A DNA stretch of 64,000 bases from Candidatus Woesearchaeota archaeon (GTDB lineage Archaea; Nanobdellota; Nanobdellia; Woesearchaeales; JACQSR01): assembly GCA_016211215.1 (NCBI GenBank), contig JACQSR010000033.1, forward strand, positions 4,766-68,765. Reading direction: 5' to 3'. Positions 303 through 26,337 of the stretch are shown here, piece after piece. Both the position numbers and the translations under genes were made by a program. Numbering within the stretch: position 1 is the stretch's first letter; each line of letters starts with the position of its first letter. The notes beneath the pieces are model-generated. The model worked only from the letters and a program-made list of their open reading frames with translations, was not told the origin of the DNA and searched no databases.

Positions 303-749
303 ATGCAGGACTTTATGCCAGACATGAATAAGAATGATATGCAGACATACGAGATAGTCCTTCTTATGGAGAACTCTATGGAGCCTGAGCATATGACGCA
401 TATGACATATCCTTCAGTTGACGAAGAGGTTGCTTCCCCCAATGCGACGGAGATTTCTGATTTTGTGGGAGATGAGAAGCCTGAGACAGACAATGATGGT
501 GACCACGCTGTAGTTACCCACTCGATATACTGGCAGGTTCAGCAGAAATATCTCTTTGGAGAAGAGCATTATCATAAAAAGGAAAAAAGACTGCCCCAAT
601 TTAAGTTCACAGACGCTGTAAAGGACTACGTTTGTTATCTGGAATTCAGGACAGCCAGCAAGGAGCTCAGGAAGCTTACCCTTAATTTTGAAGTGATGAA
701 AAGATTTGAGGATACATTTATCATTGCAAAGTTTAAAAGTATAAAATAA
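303..749 (+). CDS. hypothetical protein with an acidic N-terminus; paralog of 38..253
   Basis: ORF track. Shares the motif H-x-KK...VKDY-x-x-Y-x-x-FRT with the upstream ORF. No family recognised. Confidence 0.45.
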   Translation: MQDFMPDMNKNDMQTYEIVLLMENSMEPEHMTHMTYPSVDEEVASPNATEISDFVGDEKPETDNDGDHAVVTHSIYWQVQQKYLFGEEHYHKKEKRLPQFKFTDAVKDYVCYLEFRTASKELRKLTLNFEVMKRFEDTFIIAKFKSIK

Positions 750-779
750 TCCGAACTATTCCTTGCCTTTGACAAAAAA

Positions 780-1043
780 TGGCGGTGGCGGGACTTTCAT
801 TAAGGGTTGCGTTTTTCCGAAGTTCGTGGGATTGAGCAAAGCGAAATCCCACTTACCCTGAAGTTCCATTGTGGAACGAAGGGTGCTGGAAACGTGAGTT
901 TCCATCAACTGCGGGGTGTATCGGGCGCAGCCCTTACTTTTGAACCCGCGACCTCTAGATAACCCGGTTAGAGTATCATCGGCTTACGCCTCAGCACTCA
1001 TTGATATGAGTCTAGCGCTCTAACCAAGCTGAGCTACACCGCC
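780..1043 (-). tRNA. tRNA with anticodon CAU (elongator Met or Ile2), carrying two introns
   Basis: Read on the minus strand. Acceptor GGCGGUG/CACCGCC plus A73; D arm GCUC-AGCUUGGUUA-GAGC; anticodon stem CUAGA/UCUAG with loop CUCAUA|A; T stem GCGGG/CCCGC with loop UUCAAA|U. Introns lie at 961..1004 (44 nt, after nt 37) and 794..938 (145 nt, position 59/60, strict BHB). The mature length would be 75 nt. A TATA-like TTATTTAAAAG sits at 1067..1077. Confidence 0.85.
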
Positions 1044-1125
1044 TTGAGAAGAAGTTCTGGGGGTAGTTATTTAAAAGTGTTGGTTTATCAAGCTTAGTCA
1101 GGCCGAAAAAAATTTTCAAAAAACC

Positions 1126-1542
1126 CTATAGGCACCCTAAAACCTTTCGCCTCATCTCTTCCATCTCTCCTGCGTTGTATTTCTTTGCGGGCCACGGAAT
1201 CTTGAAGTCATCTCCTTCAAATCTTGGAATGATGTGCATGTGCGCGTGAAAAACTGCCTGCCCTGATGCCTTGCCGTTGTTGAGCAGGTTGTTGACCCCT
1301 TCCACACCAGTCGCCAATTTTACTGCCTTGGTAACTTTTTTTGTAGCGGCAATCATGTCCTTAAGGACATCATCCGGCGTGTCGATAATTGTCACGTAAT
1401 GCCCTTTTGGAATCACCAAAGCATGACCTTGGTTGATTGGCCCTATGTCAAGGAAGCTTAGCACGTTCTTAGTCTCATACAGCTTTGCGCAGGGAATTTC
1501 CCCCCTGACTATTTTGCAGAAAATGCAGTCCATAGGTACCAT
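1126..1542 (-). CDS. HIT-family (histidine triad) nucleotide hydrolase
   Basis: HAHMHIIPR histidine-triad motif and an N-terminal CIFCKI motif. The likely start is MDCIFCK at 1533. Confidence 0.85.
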   Translation of the reverse strand: MVPMDCIFCKIVRGEIPCAKLYETKNVLSFLDIGPINQGHALVIPKGHYVTIIDTPDDVLKDMIAATKKVTKAVKLATGVEGVNNLLNNGKASGQAVFHAHMHIIPRFEGDDFKIPWPAKKYNAGEMEEMRRKVLGCL

Positions 1543-1578
1543 CTCCCTTATCGTTACTTATCAATTTAAATATGTTTA

Positions 1579-1805
1579 TGGACCAGTCGGGACTTTCATT
1601 GAGAGATTGTATGTTTCTACACCGCCAAAGTTCGTGGCATCGTAGATGCCACTTGACTGCCAGCGTGTGAAGCATCCGCATAGTTGTGGATGTGCTGGAA
1701 ACTCGTTGTTTCCATCAGGTGCAGTCCCTCACTTTTGAACCCGAAGCCTCCCCATTTTTGGTAATAAAGCCAATGGGGCACTCTACCAGGTTGAGCTACT
1801 GGCCC
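1579..1805 (-). tRNA. tRNA-Ala (GGC), carrying two introns
   Basis: Read on the minus strand. Acceptor GGGCCAG/CUGGUCC with the G3:U70 Ala identity pair plus A73; anticodon stem CCCCA/UGGGG; loop UUGGC..A. A 12-nt intron lies at about 1756..1767 (H helix UUGG/CCAA). T stem UCGGG/CCCGA is interrupted by a 141-nt intron at 1593..1733 (position 59/60, strict BHB). The mature length would be 74 nt. A TATA TTTATAAG sits at 1831..1838. Confidence 0.85.
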
Positions 1806-5041: not shown

Positions 5042-7150
5042 TTGCAAAACGCAAATTATAAATATCCTCTGTTGGATTTTACATCTATTATTCACGAAAA
5101 AAAGGGGTTCATAGCGTTATTTATAGTGGGATTTATATTGGTATTCCTAGCCCAGGGCTCATTTGCCGTTAAGGTAGATACTGCCGTGGCAGATGGATTA
5201 GGCAATGATACAGTGCCGGTGATTATCTCCTTCCAGAAATACATTCCGCCTGACAGCGTCATGGCTTCTGTTGGAATCACCAGCACTAAGGCAGCATCCG
5301 CAAATTCACGCCCGGATTTGGTGATAAGGAAGCGGTACAGGAACTTTAACATGATAGCGGGCAATATCTCGAGGGAGGGCCTCAAAAAACTCATGGAAAA
5401 TCCCTCAGTCAAGTCCATCGAGATGGACGCAAGGGTTTCAATATTGCTGGACAAAAGCGCACCCCTTATCGGCGCATCAGAAGTAAATGAAATGGGCTAC
5501 AATGGCGCATTTCTCAGGGGAAATGGCGCATCTGTCTGCGTAATTGACACAGGAGTTGATTCCTCACATCCGGCCCTTTCTGTAATCGGCGGGTATGACT
5601 TTGTAAACTCCGACAATGACCCAATGGACGACAACGGCCATGGCACCATGGTTGCAGGAATAATATCCTCAAGGGACTCCAGATACACAGGTGTTGCACC
5701 TGAATCGGGCATAGTTGCATTAAAGGCTCTTGATTCAGCAGGCTCAGGCTCCTTCTCCGATGTTGTTGCATCAATAGATTACTGCATCACAAACAGGGAC
5801 AAGTTCAATATCTCCGCGATATCCATGAGCCTTGGTGTTTCCGGGTTCCGTACAAACGACTCATCCGAATGCGATTCATTGGCTGCAGGGAATGCCATAA
5901 ACACCGCAGTGCAGAACAACATCCCGGTTGTGGTGTCTTCAGGAAACGGCGGCTACCCGGATGGTATATCATACCCTGCATGCGCGTCAGGTGCAATTTC
6001 GGTGGGGGCAACTGACGACTACGACCGGATTGCAAGCTTCTCCAACTCAGCGTCATTGCTTGATTTGCTTGCTCCGGGCGTTGGAATAAAAACATCTTAC
6101 CCCGGCACGGAGTTTTTATCCGGCTCCGGAACATCTTTTTCTGCACCCCACATCGCAGGGGCTGTTGCATTGCTCAGGCAGATTGGCATGATAAATTCCT
6201 CGCTGAGCCTCTCACCATCCGAGGTGGAAAATCTGCTCAAGAATACCGGCGTGCGGCTAATCGATGGAAAAAACGGCCTTTCATTCCCCCGCGTGGACAT
6301 TAACGCGGCAGTGCTGTCATTGGCAGGAAATATGAACAGCCAGGAAACGCCGATGGCTGTAAGCATAGAGTCCCCAAAACCAATAGTTTATGCCTCAAGG
6401 TCCATCCCATTAATCATCTCCCTTACTGCAAAAGCAGACTCCATTGAATACTCTGCCAACGGAAGATTCGCAACATTGTGCAGCAACTGCAGGTATTTTA
6501 AGGACAATGTCGTTTTCAGTGAAGGCTCAAACGAGATTGTAGTCAGGGCCAACAGGAAAGGGGTGTCAAACTCAACAAATGTGTCATTCCTTGTGGATTC
6601 CATCAAGCCCAAGATTCATTCAACAAATTCAAATGGATGGAGCAACGGCACTTTTGCAGTTACATTCACGGAAGAAAACCCAAAGAACATTTCCCTGTGG
6701 ATTAGGGGCAACGGCAGTAATTTCTCCCGGTTTGAGATGAAAAACTGCGCATCCGGCAGGCGTGTCTCGTGCACAACAAATATTGGCATAAGCAATATGG
6801 AGAACCAGGCAATTGATTTCTATTTTACCATTGCAGACCTGATAAACGAGGTTTCCTCAAGGATACAGTCATCAGTAGTTGACACCACAAGGCCCAGTCT
6901 CATTATCAACTCGCCTATTGATGGAAGCGCTTATTACGGCAGGCTGACCCTCGATGCAATATCATCAGAGCCAGCAGCCATCTCCTATTCAGTAAACGAC
7001 GGGCCTCAAAAAAAGCTCTGCACATACTGCAGAACCGTATCAAGGAAGCAGGCATTTTCCACAGGCAATAACTCAGTTGCTGTTTACGCCGCCGACAGGG
7101 CAGGAAACTCCAACTCCAGGACGGTTTCATTCCAGACCAGCAATATTTAA
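5042..7150 (+). CDS. secreted subtilisin-like serine protease (peptidase S8) with C-terminal Ig-like repeats
   Basis: Catalytic triad motifs VIDTGVD (Asp), HGTMVAG (His) and GTSFSAPHIAG (Ser). N-terminal hydrophobic signal IALFIVGFILVFLAQGSFA. The start is uncertain (TTG at 5042 or 5072). A TATA TTTATAAATA sits at 5024..5033. Confidence 0.85.
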   Translation: MQNANYKYPLLDFTSIIHEKKGFIALFIVGFILVFLAQGSFAVKVDTAVADGLGNDTVPVIISFQKYIPPDSVMASVGITSTKAASANSRPDLVIRKRYRNFNMIAGNISREGLKKLMENPSVKSIEMDARVSILLDKSAPLIGASEVNEMGYNGAFLRGNGASVCVIDTGVDSSHPALSVIGGYDFVNSDNDPMDDNGHGTMVAGIISSRDSRYTGVAPESGIVALKALDSAGSGSFSDVVASIDYCITNRDKFNISAISMSLGVSGFRTNDSSECDSLAAGNAINTAVQNNIPVVVSSGNGGYPDGISYPACASGAISVGATDDYDRIASFSNSASLLDLLAPGVGIKTSYPGTEFLSGSGTSFSAPHIAGAVALLRQIGMINSSLSLSPSEVENLLKNTGVRLIDGKNGLSFPRVDINAAVLSLAGNMNSQETPMAVSIESPKPIVYASRSIPLIISLTAKADSIEYSANGRFATLCSNCRYFKDNVVFSEGSNEIVVRANRKGVSNSTNVSFLVDSIKPKIHSTNSNGWSNGTFAVTFTEENPKNISLWIRGNGSNFSRFEMKNCASGRRVSCTTNIGISNMENQAIDFYFTIADLINEVSSRIQSSVVDTTRPSLIINSPIDGSAYYGRLTLDAISSEPAAISYSVNDGPQKKLCTYCRTVSRKQAFSTGNNSVAVYAADRAGNSNSRTVSFQTSNI

Positions 7151-7175
7151 AAACCGGATAAGGATTTTGCTCTCC

Positions 7176-8072
7176 ATGTCCTACATATTTTCAAACATTC
7201 TCGGAACATTCATAATTGACAACAACCTAAAAATAATCGACAGGGTTGTTTATCAGCACGCTTCAGACGAAAAACGGCTTTTGCTGAAGCACGGGGCAGT
7301 TAAGCCTGACAATGATGCCCTGAAAAGTATTCTTGGCGTTTTCAAGGACAGGGCTTACTCGGAAAAGTTCCATTCCATCAACCTGGAGCTCACCAAGGCC
7401 GGAATCAGGGATTCTGTAACTGACGAGTTTTTAGTCATAGAGGCAGTCCACGCAATCGACGACATAACAAAGGTTTCAAATACCTTGATGAAAAGATTCA
7501 GGGGATGGTACGCTCTGCAAAATCCGGAATACGAGCATTCGGAAACCGATAATGAAATCCTTTTGGGCAATGTGCTGAAGGCAAACACCGTGAAGAAAGA
7601 AAAAATATCAATGGGCGCGCATTTCAGCAAAGAGGACATCGAGCCGGTAATGGAGCTTGGAGAAAAAATCCGCGTGCTCTACCGGCTAAGGTCATCGCAG
7701 GAAAAGTACCTTGATGGGGTTATGGGAAGGCTTTGCCCCAACGTTTCTGAAGTCGCGGGGGCCTTAATTGGCGCACGGCTTCTTGTGCATGCAAGGTCGC
7801 TCAGGAGACTCGCAATGATGCCCGCTTCCACCATACAGCTTCTCGGGGCTGAGCAGGCACTTTTCAGGCACATGAGAACCGGGGCAAGGGCTCCAAGGCA
7901 CGGTCTTATTGTAGCCCATCCCCTTTTGGTGTCTGCGCCGCAGAAAATGCACGGAAAGATAGCAAGGGGCCTGGCAGACAAGATTGCAATTGCGGCAAAA
8001 GTGGACTATTTCAGGGGAAAGTTCATAGGCAACAAGCTAAGGGAGGAGCTTGAAAAGAAGTTTGCAGCATGA
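7176..8072 (+). CDS. nop5: Nop5 (Nop56/58) C/D box snoRNP protein
   Basis: NOP domain motifs LIGARLLVHARSLRRLA, STIQLLGAEQALFRH and KHGLI. Translationally coupled to the fibrillarin gene. Start trimmed to MSYIFS. Confidence 0.85.
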   Translation: MSYIFSNILGTFIIDNNLKIIDRVVYQHASDEKRLLLKHGAVKPDNDALKSILGVFKDRAYSEKFHSINLELTKAGIRDSVTDEFLVIEAVHAIDDITKVSNTLMKRFRGWYALQNPEYEHSETDNEILLGNVLKANTVKKEKISMGAHFSKEDIEPVMELGEKIRVLYRLRSSQEKYLDGVMGRLCPNVSEVAGALIGARLLVHARSLRRLAMMPASTIQLLGAEQALFRHMRTGARAPRHGLIVAHPLLVSAPQKMHGKIARGLADKIAIAAKVDYFRGKFIGNKLREELEKKFAA

Positions 8073-8740
8073 AACAGTCATCAATATTTGAGGTTTATGA
8101 GGAGCAGAAAGGCAAGCGCAGATTCCTATACACAAAATCCATCCTGAAGGGCAATGATGTTTACGGGGAGAGGATAGTAAATGAAGGCAACGATGAGTAC
8201 CGCGAATGGAACCCCCAAAAATCAAAGCTTTGCGCTGCAATATTGAACGGAGTGCCCAACATATTCCTGAGGAAAGGTGATTTTGTGCTGTACCTCGGCT
8301 CGTCAACAGGGACAACCGTATCGCATGTATCCGACATTGTTGGCACCGAAGGCCTTGTATTCGCAATCGATATTGCGCCAATTGTAATGAGGGACCTTGT
8401 CTTTTTGTCGGAAAAAAGAAACAACATTGTTCCGGTTCTTGCAGACGCAAACATGCCTGAAACTTACCGGGAGAGAATTTCCCTCGTGGATTTCCTATAC
8501 CAGGATGTTGCCCAGAAGAACCAGGTTGAGATTTTCCTCAAGAACGCAAGGATGTATCTGAAGAAAGGGGGCTATGCGCTCATCGCAGTAAAGGCAAGAA
8601 GCATTGACGTCTCCAAGCGCCCAGGAGAGGTGTACAGGCAGGTATTCAATGAAATTGAAAAAAGCGGCATGAAGATTATAGACAAGAGAAACCTCGACCC
8701 CTTCCAGAGGGACCACCTGATGCTGTTCTGCAAGTATTGA
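8069..8740 (+). CDS. flpA: fibrillarin, rRNA/tRNA 2'-O-methyltransferase
   Basis: YREWNPQKSKLCAAIL and VLYLGSSTGTTVSHVSDIV (SAM-binding motif). ATGA overlap with nop5. Confidence 0.9.
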   Translation: MKQSSIFEVYEEQKGKRRFLYTKSILKGNDVYGERIVNEGNDEYREWNPQKSKLCAAILNGVPNIFLRKGDFVLYLGSSTGTTVSHVSDIVGTEGLVFAIDIAPIVMRDLVFLSEKRNNIVPVLADANMPETYRERISLVDFLYQDVAQKNQVEIFLKNARMYLKKGGYALIAVKARSIDVSKRPGEVYRQVFNEIEKSGMKIIDKRNLDPFQRDHLMLFCKY

Positions 8741-26264: not shown

Positions 26265-26337
26265 GGGAGGGTAGCCAAGCGGCCAAGGCGATCGCCTGCA
26301 GAGCGATTATTCATGGGTTCGAGTCCCATTCCTCCCT
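26265..26337 (+). tRNA. tRNA-Cys (GCA), intron-less
   Basis: Acceptor GGGAGGG/UCCUCCC plus discriminator U73 (a Cys identity element). D arm GCC-AAGCGGCCAA-GGC. Anticodon arm AUCGC-CUGCAGA-GCGAU. T arm AUGGG-UUCGAGU-CCCAU. A T-run TTAATTTTTGT lies downstream. Confidence 0.9.

Follow-up and report, generated by a model that had tools for sequence, protein, structure and literature searches.

How do two neighboring archaeal tRNA genes come to carry related, structured introns of 141 and 145 nt at the same position of their T-loops, and what are these introns? The question is posed by a stretch of 64,000 nt, “the window” in the following, of contig JACQSR010000033.1 from a Candidatus Woesearchaeota archaeon (assembly GCA_016211215.1), which contains on its minus strand a gene for tRNA-Ala(GGC) and a gene for a tRNA with the anticodon CAU, tRNA(CAU). 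Comparison with related genomes indicates that both inserts are probably spliced bulge-helix-bulge (BHB) introns at position 59/60, selfish or neutral and recently mobile, which were enlarged from mini-introns by hairpin modules.

Two tRNA genes with two introns each

The genes and their introns are the following (“c1” and “c2” designate copies of the intron family).
1579..1805, minus strand: tRNA-Ala(GGC) gene, G1 at 1805, discriminator A at 1579, two introns
1593..1733, minus strand: T-loop (59/60) intron of tRNA-Ala, 141 nt, copy c2
1756..1767, minus strand: anticodon-loop (37/38) intron of tRNA-Ala, 12 nt
780..1043, minus strand: tRNA(CAU) gene, G1 at 1043, discriminator A at 780, two introns
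794..938, minus strand: T-loop (59/60) intron of tRNA(CAU), 145 nt, copy c1
961..1004, minus strand: anticodon-loop intron of tRNA(CAU), 44 nt

When positions 1733..1593 and 1767..1756 were removed in silico from the tRNA-Ala gene, a 76-nt tRNA with a G3:U70 pair resulted, and removal of 938..794 and 1004..961 from the tRNA(CAU) gene yielded a tRNA of 75 nt. Both products were scored by ARAGORN as perfect cloverleaves with the T-loop UUCAAAU; the unspliced genes were missed. A previous sequence-only reading of this locus had placed the 145-nt and 141-nt inserts correctly with respect to coordinates, minus strand, and position 59/60, and its regenerated T-loop UUCAAAU is present in both spliced products. 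It had left out the anticodon-loop introns, of which each of the two tRNAs possesses one. Applied to the window as such, ARAGORN and Rfam (gathering threshold) passed over both interrupted genes and found only an uninterrupted tRNA-Cys at 26265. Standard tRNA finders overlook genes of this kind, and the tRNA sets of DPANN genomes that contain them will look incomplete.

The tRNA(CAU) has a G1-C72 pair and does not have the three G-C pairs in the anticodon stem, which indicates an elongator tRNA-Met or a tRNA-Ile2 and not the initiator. A HIT-family gene (1542..1126) separates it from tRNA-Ala; its product has 100% identity to a protein listed by NCBI under a Candidatus Woesearchaeota archaeon. 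Searches with HIT and ribosomal protein eL43 led to the same clade of four Woesearchaeota genomes, which comprises the window genome, the two metagenome-assembled genomes (MAGs) SMAG_U8158 (GCA_035289105, “SMAG” in the following) and nzgw43, and assembly GCA_042577505; further loci were reached through neighboring proteins. The DNA identity between the window and SMAG is 75% for the GluRS and histone genes and 80% for the HIT region. At this background, the exons of tRNA-Ala and tRNA(CAU) are 100% identical to their SMAG orthologs, which argues that the tRNA genes are functional and places their exons under strong constraint.

Splice junctions at position 59/60

The junctions of both T-loop introns contain these elements on the minus strand (Ha and Hb, strands of the H helix).
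c2: Ha UUCA 1739-1736; 5' bulge AAA 1735-1733; Hb UGAA 1598-1595; 3' bulge AGU 1594-1592
c1: Ha UUCA 944-941; 5' bulge AAA 940-938; Hb UGAA 799-796; 3' bulge AGU 795-793

The T stem is followed by the 4-bp H helix UUCA/UGAA, two 3-nt bulges, and an inner helix of 6 to 7 bp that is formed by the intron ends. The intron is located at 59/60 because the cuts are positioned at AA|A and AG|U. As in archaeal BHB introns, two 3-nt bulges accompany a 4-bp helix, and joining of the exons in silico restores a canonical tRNA. In both c1 and c2, the inner helix opens with a G.A mismatch, so that the BHB is near-canonical: the H helix UUCA/UGAA and the bulges AAA and AGU had been recognized correctly from the sequence, and only the strictness ascribed to this geometry has to be withdrawn.

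The same junction, UUC(A/G)-AA| at the 5' end and (U/C)GAA-AG|U at the 3' end, occurs in nine of nine inserts of the clade that adjoin nt 59. These are the inserts in tRNA-Ala and tRNA(CAU) of the window, in tRNA-Ala, tRNA(CAU), and tRNA-Pro of SMAG together with the bypassed copy at its tRNA-Val, in tRNA-Pro of nzgw43, and in tRNA-Ala and tRNA-Pro of GCA_042577505. The 3' strand of the H helix tracks the T-loop, being UGAA with UUCA and CGAA in two of the three UUCG cases (tRNA-Val and the tRNA-Pro of GCA_042577505), with a G.U pair in the third. Removal of the introns in silico gave perfect cloverleaves for all interrupted tRNA genes tested with ARAGORN (7/7). By this comparison, the sequence features required for BHB splicing are present and covary. 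Self-splicing group I or group II introns were considered and rejected, since there was no match to a catalytic core in Rfam and 141 to 145 nt are too small for them.

Copies of the family in the clade

A strict motif, AAGTGG-N8-30-CCACKAAYTTYGG-N5-35-(Y)GAAAG, was scanned against 185,579 species-representative genomes and the JGI metagenomes. True matches were obtained only in SMAG_U8158 and nzgw43, the rest being chance matches in bacterial genes; both collections were scanned with this single pattern, which diverged relatives elsewhere would escape. The family is present in three of the four clade genomes with the following copies.
c1: window, tRNA(CAU), 59/60, 145 nt
c2: window, tRNA-Ala, 59/60, 141 nt
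c3: SMAG, tRNA(CAU), 59/60, 96 nt, corresponding to c2 minus a module of 46 nt
c4: SMAG, adjoining the discriminator of tRNA-Ala and UU, 3' closing strand missing
c5: SMAG, behind a complete tRNA-Val(GAC) and UU, 88 nt, with the last 14 nt of the tRNA and UU repeated next to it on the 3' side
c6: nzgw43, tRNA-Pro(UGG), 59/60, 94 nt
c7: SMAG_U8158 (DATDYF010000040), L012:5562-5750, antisense, right after the SRP54 stop codon, 66-nt partial copy, with a diverged duplicate (about 60 nt) of the SRP54 3' end

A third copy in the 64 kb of the window was found neither by motif searches nor by blastn-short nor by a covariance model with the filters off, and candidates near 54.2 kb and 63.1 kb turned out to be chance matches in coding sequence. 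Of the further copies that the earlier reading had proposed to look for, none was found in the window, and relatives are present in SMAG_U8158 and nzgw43.

The orthologous sites in the clade are occupied by introns of very different length.
tRNA-Ala 59/60, window: 141 nt
tRNA-Ala 59/60, SMAG: 86 nt, unrelated interior (“I86”)
tRNA-Ala 59/60, GCA_042577505: 28 nt
tRNA-Pro 59/60, SMAG: 27 nt, ACUAAGGG-UUGUAG-CCCUUAAUGAAAG
tRNA-Pro 59/60, GCA_042577505: 30 nt
tRNA-Pro 59/60, nzgw43: 94 nt
tRNA(CAU) 59/60: subtype c1 in the window, c2-like subtype (c3) in SMAG

Every tRNA-Ala, tRNA(CAU), and tRNA-Pro gene of the clade that was seen contains an insert at 59/60, between 27 and 145 nt long and with the same junctions, and the tRNA-Pro introns of 27, 30, and 94 nt have an identical 5' end. 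An insert of varied content in all these genes indicates that introns at 59/60 are old and pervasive in the clade and that the long ones are derived, as judged from the four genomes.

The anticodon-loop introns vary likewise (window 1756-1767; L001:3284-3442; L005:2235-2383; L014:1789-2006; L037:9879-9992; L038:9888-9990). In tRNA-Ala, their length is 12 nt in the window, 0 in SMAG, and 47 nt in GCA_042577505, and in the tRNA-Pro genes of the clade 51, 12, and 0 nt. Next to the SMAG tRNA-Ala (L001:3620-3997), an aIF5A-like gene and an ORF (open reading frame) for a 138-amino-acid membrane protein are located, both of which are missing at window positions 1543-1578, indicating local rearrangement beside the intron-bearing tRNA genes.

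Architecture of the long introns

The two T-loop introns of the window are homologous, as had been proposed: their global alignment score is 89, compared to 7.2 ± 8.0 for shuffled sequences (n = 1000), and the shared blocks are those described before. Both precursors fold more stably than shuffled sequences, with z values of -4.5 and -4.3. For five cores, RNAalifold predicted a single rod-like hairpin of 27 pairs, which agrees with the minimum-free-energy folds of the individual copies. In seven of these 27 pairs, both sides had changed in a compensatory manner, which substantiates the previous claim that the stems diverged and still pair.

The base of the rod is the closing helix P1, which is the BHB inner helix, followed by a short P2. 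Above P2, CCG/CUGG pairs with UCGG/UUGG, then comes a 3-bp helix AGU/ACU (AAU/AUU in c4), and the tip consists of an internal loop CAA/GA and the hairpin GUGG..CCAC, the distal part of which differs between copies by compensatory changes. What had been viewed as conserved loop and junction blocks is explained by this rod, because GAACUUYGG is the 3' strand of two helices. A few details of the sequence-only reading need correction. The hairpin UGAUGGAAAC/GUUUCCAGCA is a 10-bp stem with one A.G mismatch, its loops contain 4 and 5 nt instead of 4 and 6 nt, and its “conserved flanks” merely lengthen the stem to these 10 bp; the tRNA(CAU) intron has the 3' end UAAUGAAAG|U and not CAAUGAAAG|U.

Two kinds of modules can be distinguished in c1 and c2.
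1672..1717, minus strand: two-hairpin module of c2, 46 nt, UGAUGGAAAC-AACGA-GUUUCCAGCA plus CAUCC..GGAUG, in the 5' strand of c2 after CUGCACC
856..907, minus strand: two-hairpin module of c1, 52 nt, UGAUGGAAAC-UCAC-GUUUCCAGCA plus CCCU..GUUCCA-CAA-UGGAAC..AGGG, after GCAGU
1625..1660, minus strand: core of the “P3 element” of c2, GCAGUCAA-GUGGCAUC-UAC-GAUGCCAC-GAACUUUGG
817..854, minus strand: core of the “P3 element” of c1, AA-GUGGGAUU-loop-AAUCCCAC-GAACUUCGG

The two-hairpin module of about 50 nt occurs in the window genome only and at different internal sites of c1 and c2. That of c2 (46 nt) is missing from the otherwise 95%-identical c3, and that of c1 (52 nt) from c5 and c6, which match c1 on both sides of the module. 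The P3 stem shows compensatory changes between the subtypes, and covariance model R1 scored c2 with 65.4 bits.

Five of the seven long copies (c1 to c6 and I86) open with a local hairpin, 4 bp or longer, that is built from the 5' strand of P1, continue with an insert, and end with a second 3' strand of P1 next to UGAA. In c6, this hairpin is UUAGGG-ACUGCA-CCCUAA, and CCCUAAA occurs twice, at positions 15 and 82; in I86 it is CAUUUCC-loop-GGAAAUG, followed downstream by AAAUG. The long introns are, thus, likely mini-introns plus an insertion, with duplication of the strand that preserves the BHB.

Recent exchange and copies outside of introns

Between c2 and c3, which reside in different tRNAs, the identity is 95% across the 3' 85 nt of c2. 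The first 31 nt of c1 are 100% identical to c5, the copies c5, c2, and c3 agree in 33 of 33 nt of the P3 hairpin, and c1 and c6 share 21 identical nt in the P3 core. Copy c7 is a mosaic, in which the 5' hairpin of the I86 type is joined to a P3 element. Module identities of 95 to 100% versus a background of 75 to 80%, together with these mosaic copies, point to recent exchange and recombination of the modules rather than vertical inheritance at fixed sites. A “mobile intron,” which had been offered as one option before, is well supported by this comparison with three related genomes. Similar introns in the T-loops of tRNA-Ala, tRNA(CAU), and tRNA-Pro and beside tRNA-Val and tRNA-Ala are also what is expected of transposing introns of the Thermoproteales type.

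The T-arm of the SMAG tRNA-Val(GAC) (L012:1455-1687, minus strand; the same as L020) is uninterrupted. The tRNA is followed by UU and the 88-nt copy c5, which ends with CGAAAG, and downstream of c5 by an identical second copy of nt 60 to 73 of tRNA-Val and UU, so that a 16-nt direct repeat exists. A metagenome contig that was deposited independently contains the identical c5 locus. Whether or not splicing takes place, this locus could yield the same mature tRNA, and it may represent an intermediate of intron gain or loss. Copy c7 is located between the end of the functional SRP54 gene (..LKGSKGDMSKMMKKLKMG) and its diverged duplicate of about 60 nt (..LKGSKGDMGKMMKKLKMSGM), an arrangement that resembles integration borders or homology-facilitated illegitimate recombination. 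For a possible second tRNA 3' exon following the copy that flanks tRNA-Ala (CCUAGAAGGGCACA), no matching 5' half was present in the loci of the clade examined.

The window is otherwise ordinary chromosome with genes for GluRS, a histone, Nop5, fibrillarin, the SUF system, CysRS, DnaK/DnaJ/GrpE, and an A-type ATPase. No integrase, transposase, or reverse transcriptase was identified by Pfam among its approximately 55 ORFs, which are housekeeping, and the surroundings of the SMAG copies gave the same result. Three candidate sources of mobility were dismissed. The ORFs at 38-253 and 303-749 (plus strand), 3' of tRNA(CAU), had looked like integrase fragments with a SAM-like domain and had no Pfam match; they share a C-terminal motif ..VKDY(I/V)xY(I/L)(K/E)FRT... 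Scans of IMG/VR for a viral or plasmid source gave only two matches, both to one phage coding sequence and due to chance. A relation to the omega-RNA of IS200/IS605 elements, an idea prompted by PMC12558985, did not agree with the absence of a common target motif, the single conserved hairpin, and the absence of TnpB.

Proposed mechanism and its alternatives

The favored reading, spliced passengers at 59/60 built up from mini-introns, would operate as follows. In the pre-tRNA, nt 54 to 57 of the T-loop (UUCA) would pair with the last four intron nt before the 3' bulge (UGAA), and the intron ends would pair with each other into the inner helix. The tRNA-splicing endonuclease would cut both 3-nt bulges, and an RtcB-type ligase would join the exons, giving back the T-loop UUCAAAU; EndA and RtcB are the presumed enzymes for this removal. 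The starting point was likely a hairpin intron of about 27 to 30 nt at 59/60, common to tRNAs of the four-genome clade. Some copies would have gained a hairpin element of about 55 to 65 nt with the core GGCAGUCAAGUGG-stem-loop-CCACGAACUUYGG, resulting in a rod-like intron of about 90 nt, and both introns of the window genome would have received the further two-hairpin module of about 50 nt at different internal sites. The modules move among the introns of different tRNAs and from one genome to another, and they land outside of introns as well. Presumably without a function of their own, the inserts would be tolerated as selfish or neutral passengers because splicing removes them. As to how they spread, recombination at the DNA level or gene conversion is the best guess; DNA would first have passed between relatives, and the conserved T-arm exon sequence (e.g., CGGGTTCAAA and TCCCG of tRNA-Ala and tRNA(CAU)) and the common intron ends would provide the homology.

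Several points weigh against this reading. Splicing of c1 and c2 is predicted from their sequence, and an endonuclease of strict specificity might not cut an inner helix starting with a mismatch. Neither EndA nor RtcB nor any endonuclease or ligase domain was found in the approximately 55 ORFs of the window (Pfam search), and the surroundings of the copies revealed no recombinase, transposase, or reverse transcriptase. The restriction of the family to the clade depends on the one strict pattern mentioned above, and the likely history of mini-intron plus insertion on internal repeats of 5 to 13 nt and four genomes. Finally, the core GCAGUCAAGUGG..CCACGAACUU is invariant among copies whose loops and closing helices vary widely, and this could reflect constraint rather than recency.

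The last point touches the interpretation of the sequence-only reading, a functional RNA rather than filler: the intron or its P3 core would be released, perhaps as a circle, and serve as a guide, protein-binding RNA, or regulator. This is distinctly improbable. AGU-CAA-GUGG..CCAC-GA-ACU-UYGG is indeed invariant or compensated in seven of seven copies (AAU/AUU in c4) while the loops differ. The stems that are conserved, however, consist of the BHB inner helix plus its rod-like extension, for which splicing alone would select. The modules are better conserved than the surrounding protein genes, and recent transfer explains high identity across diverged genomes equally well. The 5' strand of the closing helix pairs locally or distally in most copies and could act as a switch, and functional intron-encoded C/D RNAs are known from archaeal tRNA-Trp (PMC12558985); however, the T-loop introns contain neither C/D nor H/ACA boxes, and Rfam assigned no family to either of them at the gathering threshold or at E ≤ 10. 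Moreover, the orthologous sites of the sister genomes harbor a 27- to 30-nt hairpin, the unrelated 86-nt intron, or a different subtype, modules of about 50 nt were gained or lost between 95%-identical copies, the family exists in three of four related genomes and nowhere else in the strict motif scans, and the extra-intronic copies c4 and c7 look decayed, being without 3' closing strand and truncated, respectively. Two K-turn assignments were also rejected: UGAUGG..CCAGCA, considered as K-turn or C/D motif, is a plain helix with one A.G mismatch and registers off the K-turn consensus, and by sequence inspection the register of the CAA/GA internal loop is unlike this consensus. It is, on the other hand, hardly credible that both genes are decaying pseudo-tRNAs with functional copies elsewhere in the genome. 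Standard detectors miss both, and with 64 kb of the genome in view other copies may exist, but the exon identity against the diverged background, the perfect cloverleaves of the spliced products with their identity elements, the interrupted arrangement kept in four of four genomes, and the covariation of the H helix with the T-loop all speak against decay.

For the movement itself, two more explanations compete with recombination at the DNA level. It is unlikely that what moves is the BHB intron after its excision or an intermediate of splicing, and distinctly unlikely that an RtcB-type ligase attaches this RNA to the end of another one and that the product returns to the DNA by reverse transcription and recombination. 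What speaks for such a route are the borders of the extra-intronic copies. After tRNA-Ala and tRNA-Val, they begin with intron nt 1 (UU|AGUAAGGG), the copy after SRP54 begins A|CAUUUC like the 5' end of I86, and two of them stop exactly at the 3' splice site (..GAAAG|). The order tRNA plus UU, full intron, 3' exon plus UU at the tRNA-Val locus would be expected if a spliced pre-tRNA carrying its trailer had been ligated to an intron-3'-exon intermediate. Gene conversion at the T-arm also gives splice-site-precise borders, however, the copies flanking tRNA-Ala and tRNA-Val could be one event copied through the common CCAUU-AGUAAGGG junction, the antisense SRP54 copy with its diverged repeat of about 60 nt does not fit, and about 150 kb of clade sequence revealed no reverse transcriptase. 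If this route were true, the clade would preserve intermediates of intron transposition and of stepwise growth by nested insertion, which would bear on a process inferred over 15 years and lacking a mechanism so far. Alternatively, integrated elements directed at the 3' ends of tRNAs and genes may have left the copies as scars, or the copies may be miniature DNA transposons; they would survive in the T-loop only because their ends form a BHB by chance. Direct repeats of the target 3' ends, 16 nt at tRNA-Val and about 60 nt at SRP54, are similar to archaeal attL/attR borders, which are the model for intron gain in Caldiarchaeum (PMC3293823), and short internal repeats of 5 to 13 nt flank the inserted modules. 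This explanation is nevertheless decidedly improbable: the T-loop copies have no target duplication and the tRNA sequence is restored exactly, the repeats differ in length (5 to 60 nt), the closing helix is the only structure resembling terminal inverted repeats, just 66 to 88 nt lie between the repeats, no integrase or transposase is nearby, and IMG/VR gave no true match. Selfish or neutral introns that spread by recombination thus remain the preferred reading.

A guide-like intron in the anticodon loop

The 44-nt anticodon-loop intron of tRNA(CAU) (961-1004, minus strand) contains the boxes CUGA (994-991) and GAUGA (980-976), with a small hairpin between them. Pairing of the anticodon loop with the nucleotides that precede CUGA makes the fifth nt upstream of this box face C34. 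By its sequence, this intron looks like a cis-acting guide of the box C/D type for Cm34 and is a candidate for such a function. In SMAG it is conserved, a change within the internal hairpin being compensated, and an 11-nt stretch of the intron, CUCUAACCGGG, is complementary to the D-arm of the same tRNA, CUUGGUUAGAG. Genes for Nop5 and fibrillarin are located at 7077-8740. On the other strand, 3' of tRNA(CAU), positions 684-780 (plus strand) gave weak matches to C/D snoRNA-like families of Rfam with E values of about 5 to 7, which score well under the gathering threshold and are probably due to chance.

Comparison with known systems

Position 59/60 is, we assume, among the intron positions that have been reported for Thermoproteales. 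According to PMC4090602 and PMC4033280, tRNAs of these archaea contain non-canonical introns at many positions, several introns may interrupt one tRNA, and a “large-scale intron transposition” has occurred. Near-identical BHB introns across isoacceptors, implying recent transposition and rapid gain (Fujishima et al. 2010, reviewed in PMC4090602 and PMC4033280), are the counterpart of the situation described here, and there, too, the transposition mechanism is given as unknown. The introns of the window differ in belonging to Woesearchaeota (DPANN) and not to Crenarchaeota, in the location of all intronic copies at 59/60, in their composite nature as mini-introns with nested hairpin modules of up to 145 nt, and in the existence of extra-intronic copies with duplicated target 3' ends.

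In the case of the tRNA-Thr of Caldiarchaeum subterraneum (Sugahara et al. 2012, PMC3293823), one tRNA locus likewise exists in different states in very close relatives, tRNA-fragment direct repeats flank the inserted DNA, and intron gain is tied to mobile DNA. The insert there measures 1.8 kb and includes a recombinase gene, and what is repeated is the tRNA 5' end; here, the inserts comprise 66 to 88 nt without a recombinase seen, and the 3' end is repeated. For DPANN archaea, increased disruption of tRNA genes, incompletely predicted tRNA sets, and a link of loop-bearing alpha4 EndAs to more disrupted tRNA genes were reported (PMC5829648). Several introns per tRNA gene at non-canonical positions occur in ARMAN and other DPANN archaea as well (PMC3239211, PMC3488258, PMC5829648), in studies that deal with enzymes and intron counts and in which no homologous, mobile T-loop intron family of Woesearchaeota was found described. 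By full-text searches, no description of the c1/c2 intron family or of T-loop intron mobility in Woesearchaeota was found. The impression that the family was undescribed holds to this extent; non-canonical introns and their transposition as such are known from Thermoproteales.

The box C/D intron of the archaeal pre-tRNA-Trp is another large (about 100 nt), structured BHB intron, which is circularized after excision; it has C/D boxes and guide sequences and is conserved at one orthologous site across many Euryarchaeota (cited in PMC12558985). Unlike this intron, the T-loop introns described here have no boxes and no orthologous conservation, so that the anticodon-loop intron of the window tRNA(CAU) is the better candidate for this kind. 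Compared with all these systems, it is new that the introns belong to a DPANN lineage, occupy one fixed position, and reach 145 nt by composite, nested build-up, and that copies with duplicated target ends exist outside of introns. The same tRNA site with an intron of 27 nt, 86 to 94 nt, or 141 to 145 nt in close relatives makes filled, empty, and intermediate states available for testing models of intron gain. Compared to Thermoproteales and Caldiarchaeum, this does not establish a new principle but provides a compact natural series for gain, enlargement, and movement of archaeal tRNA introns.

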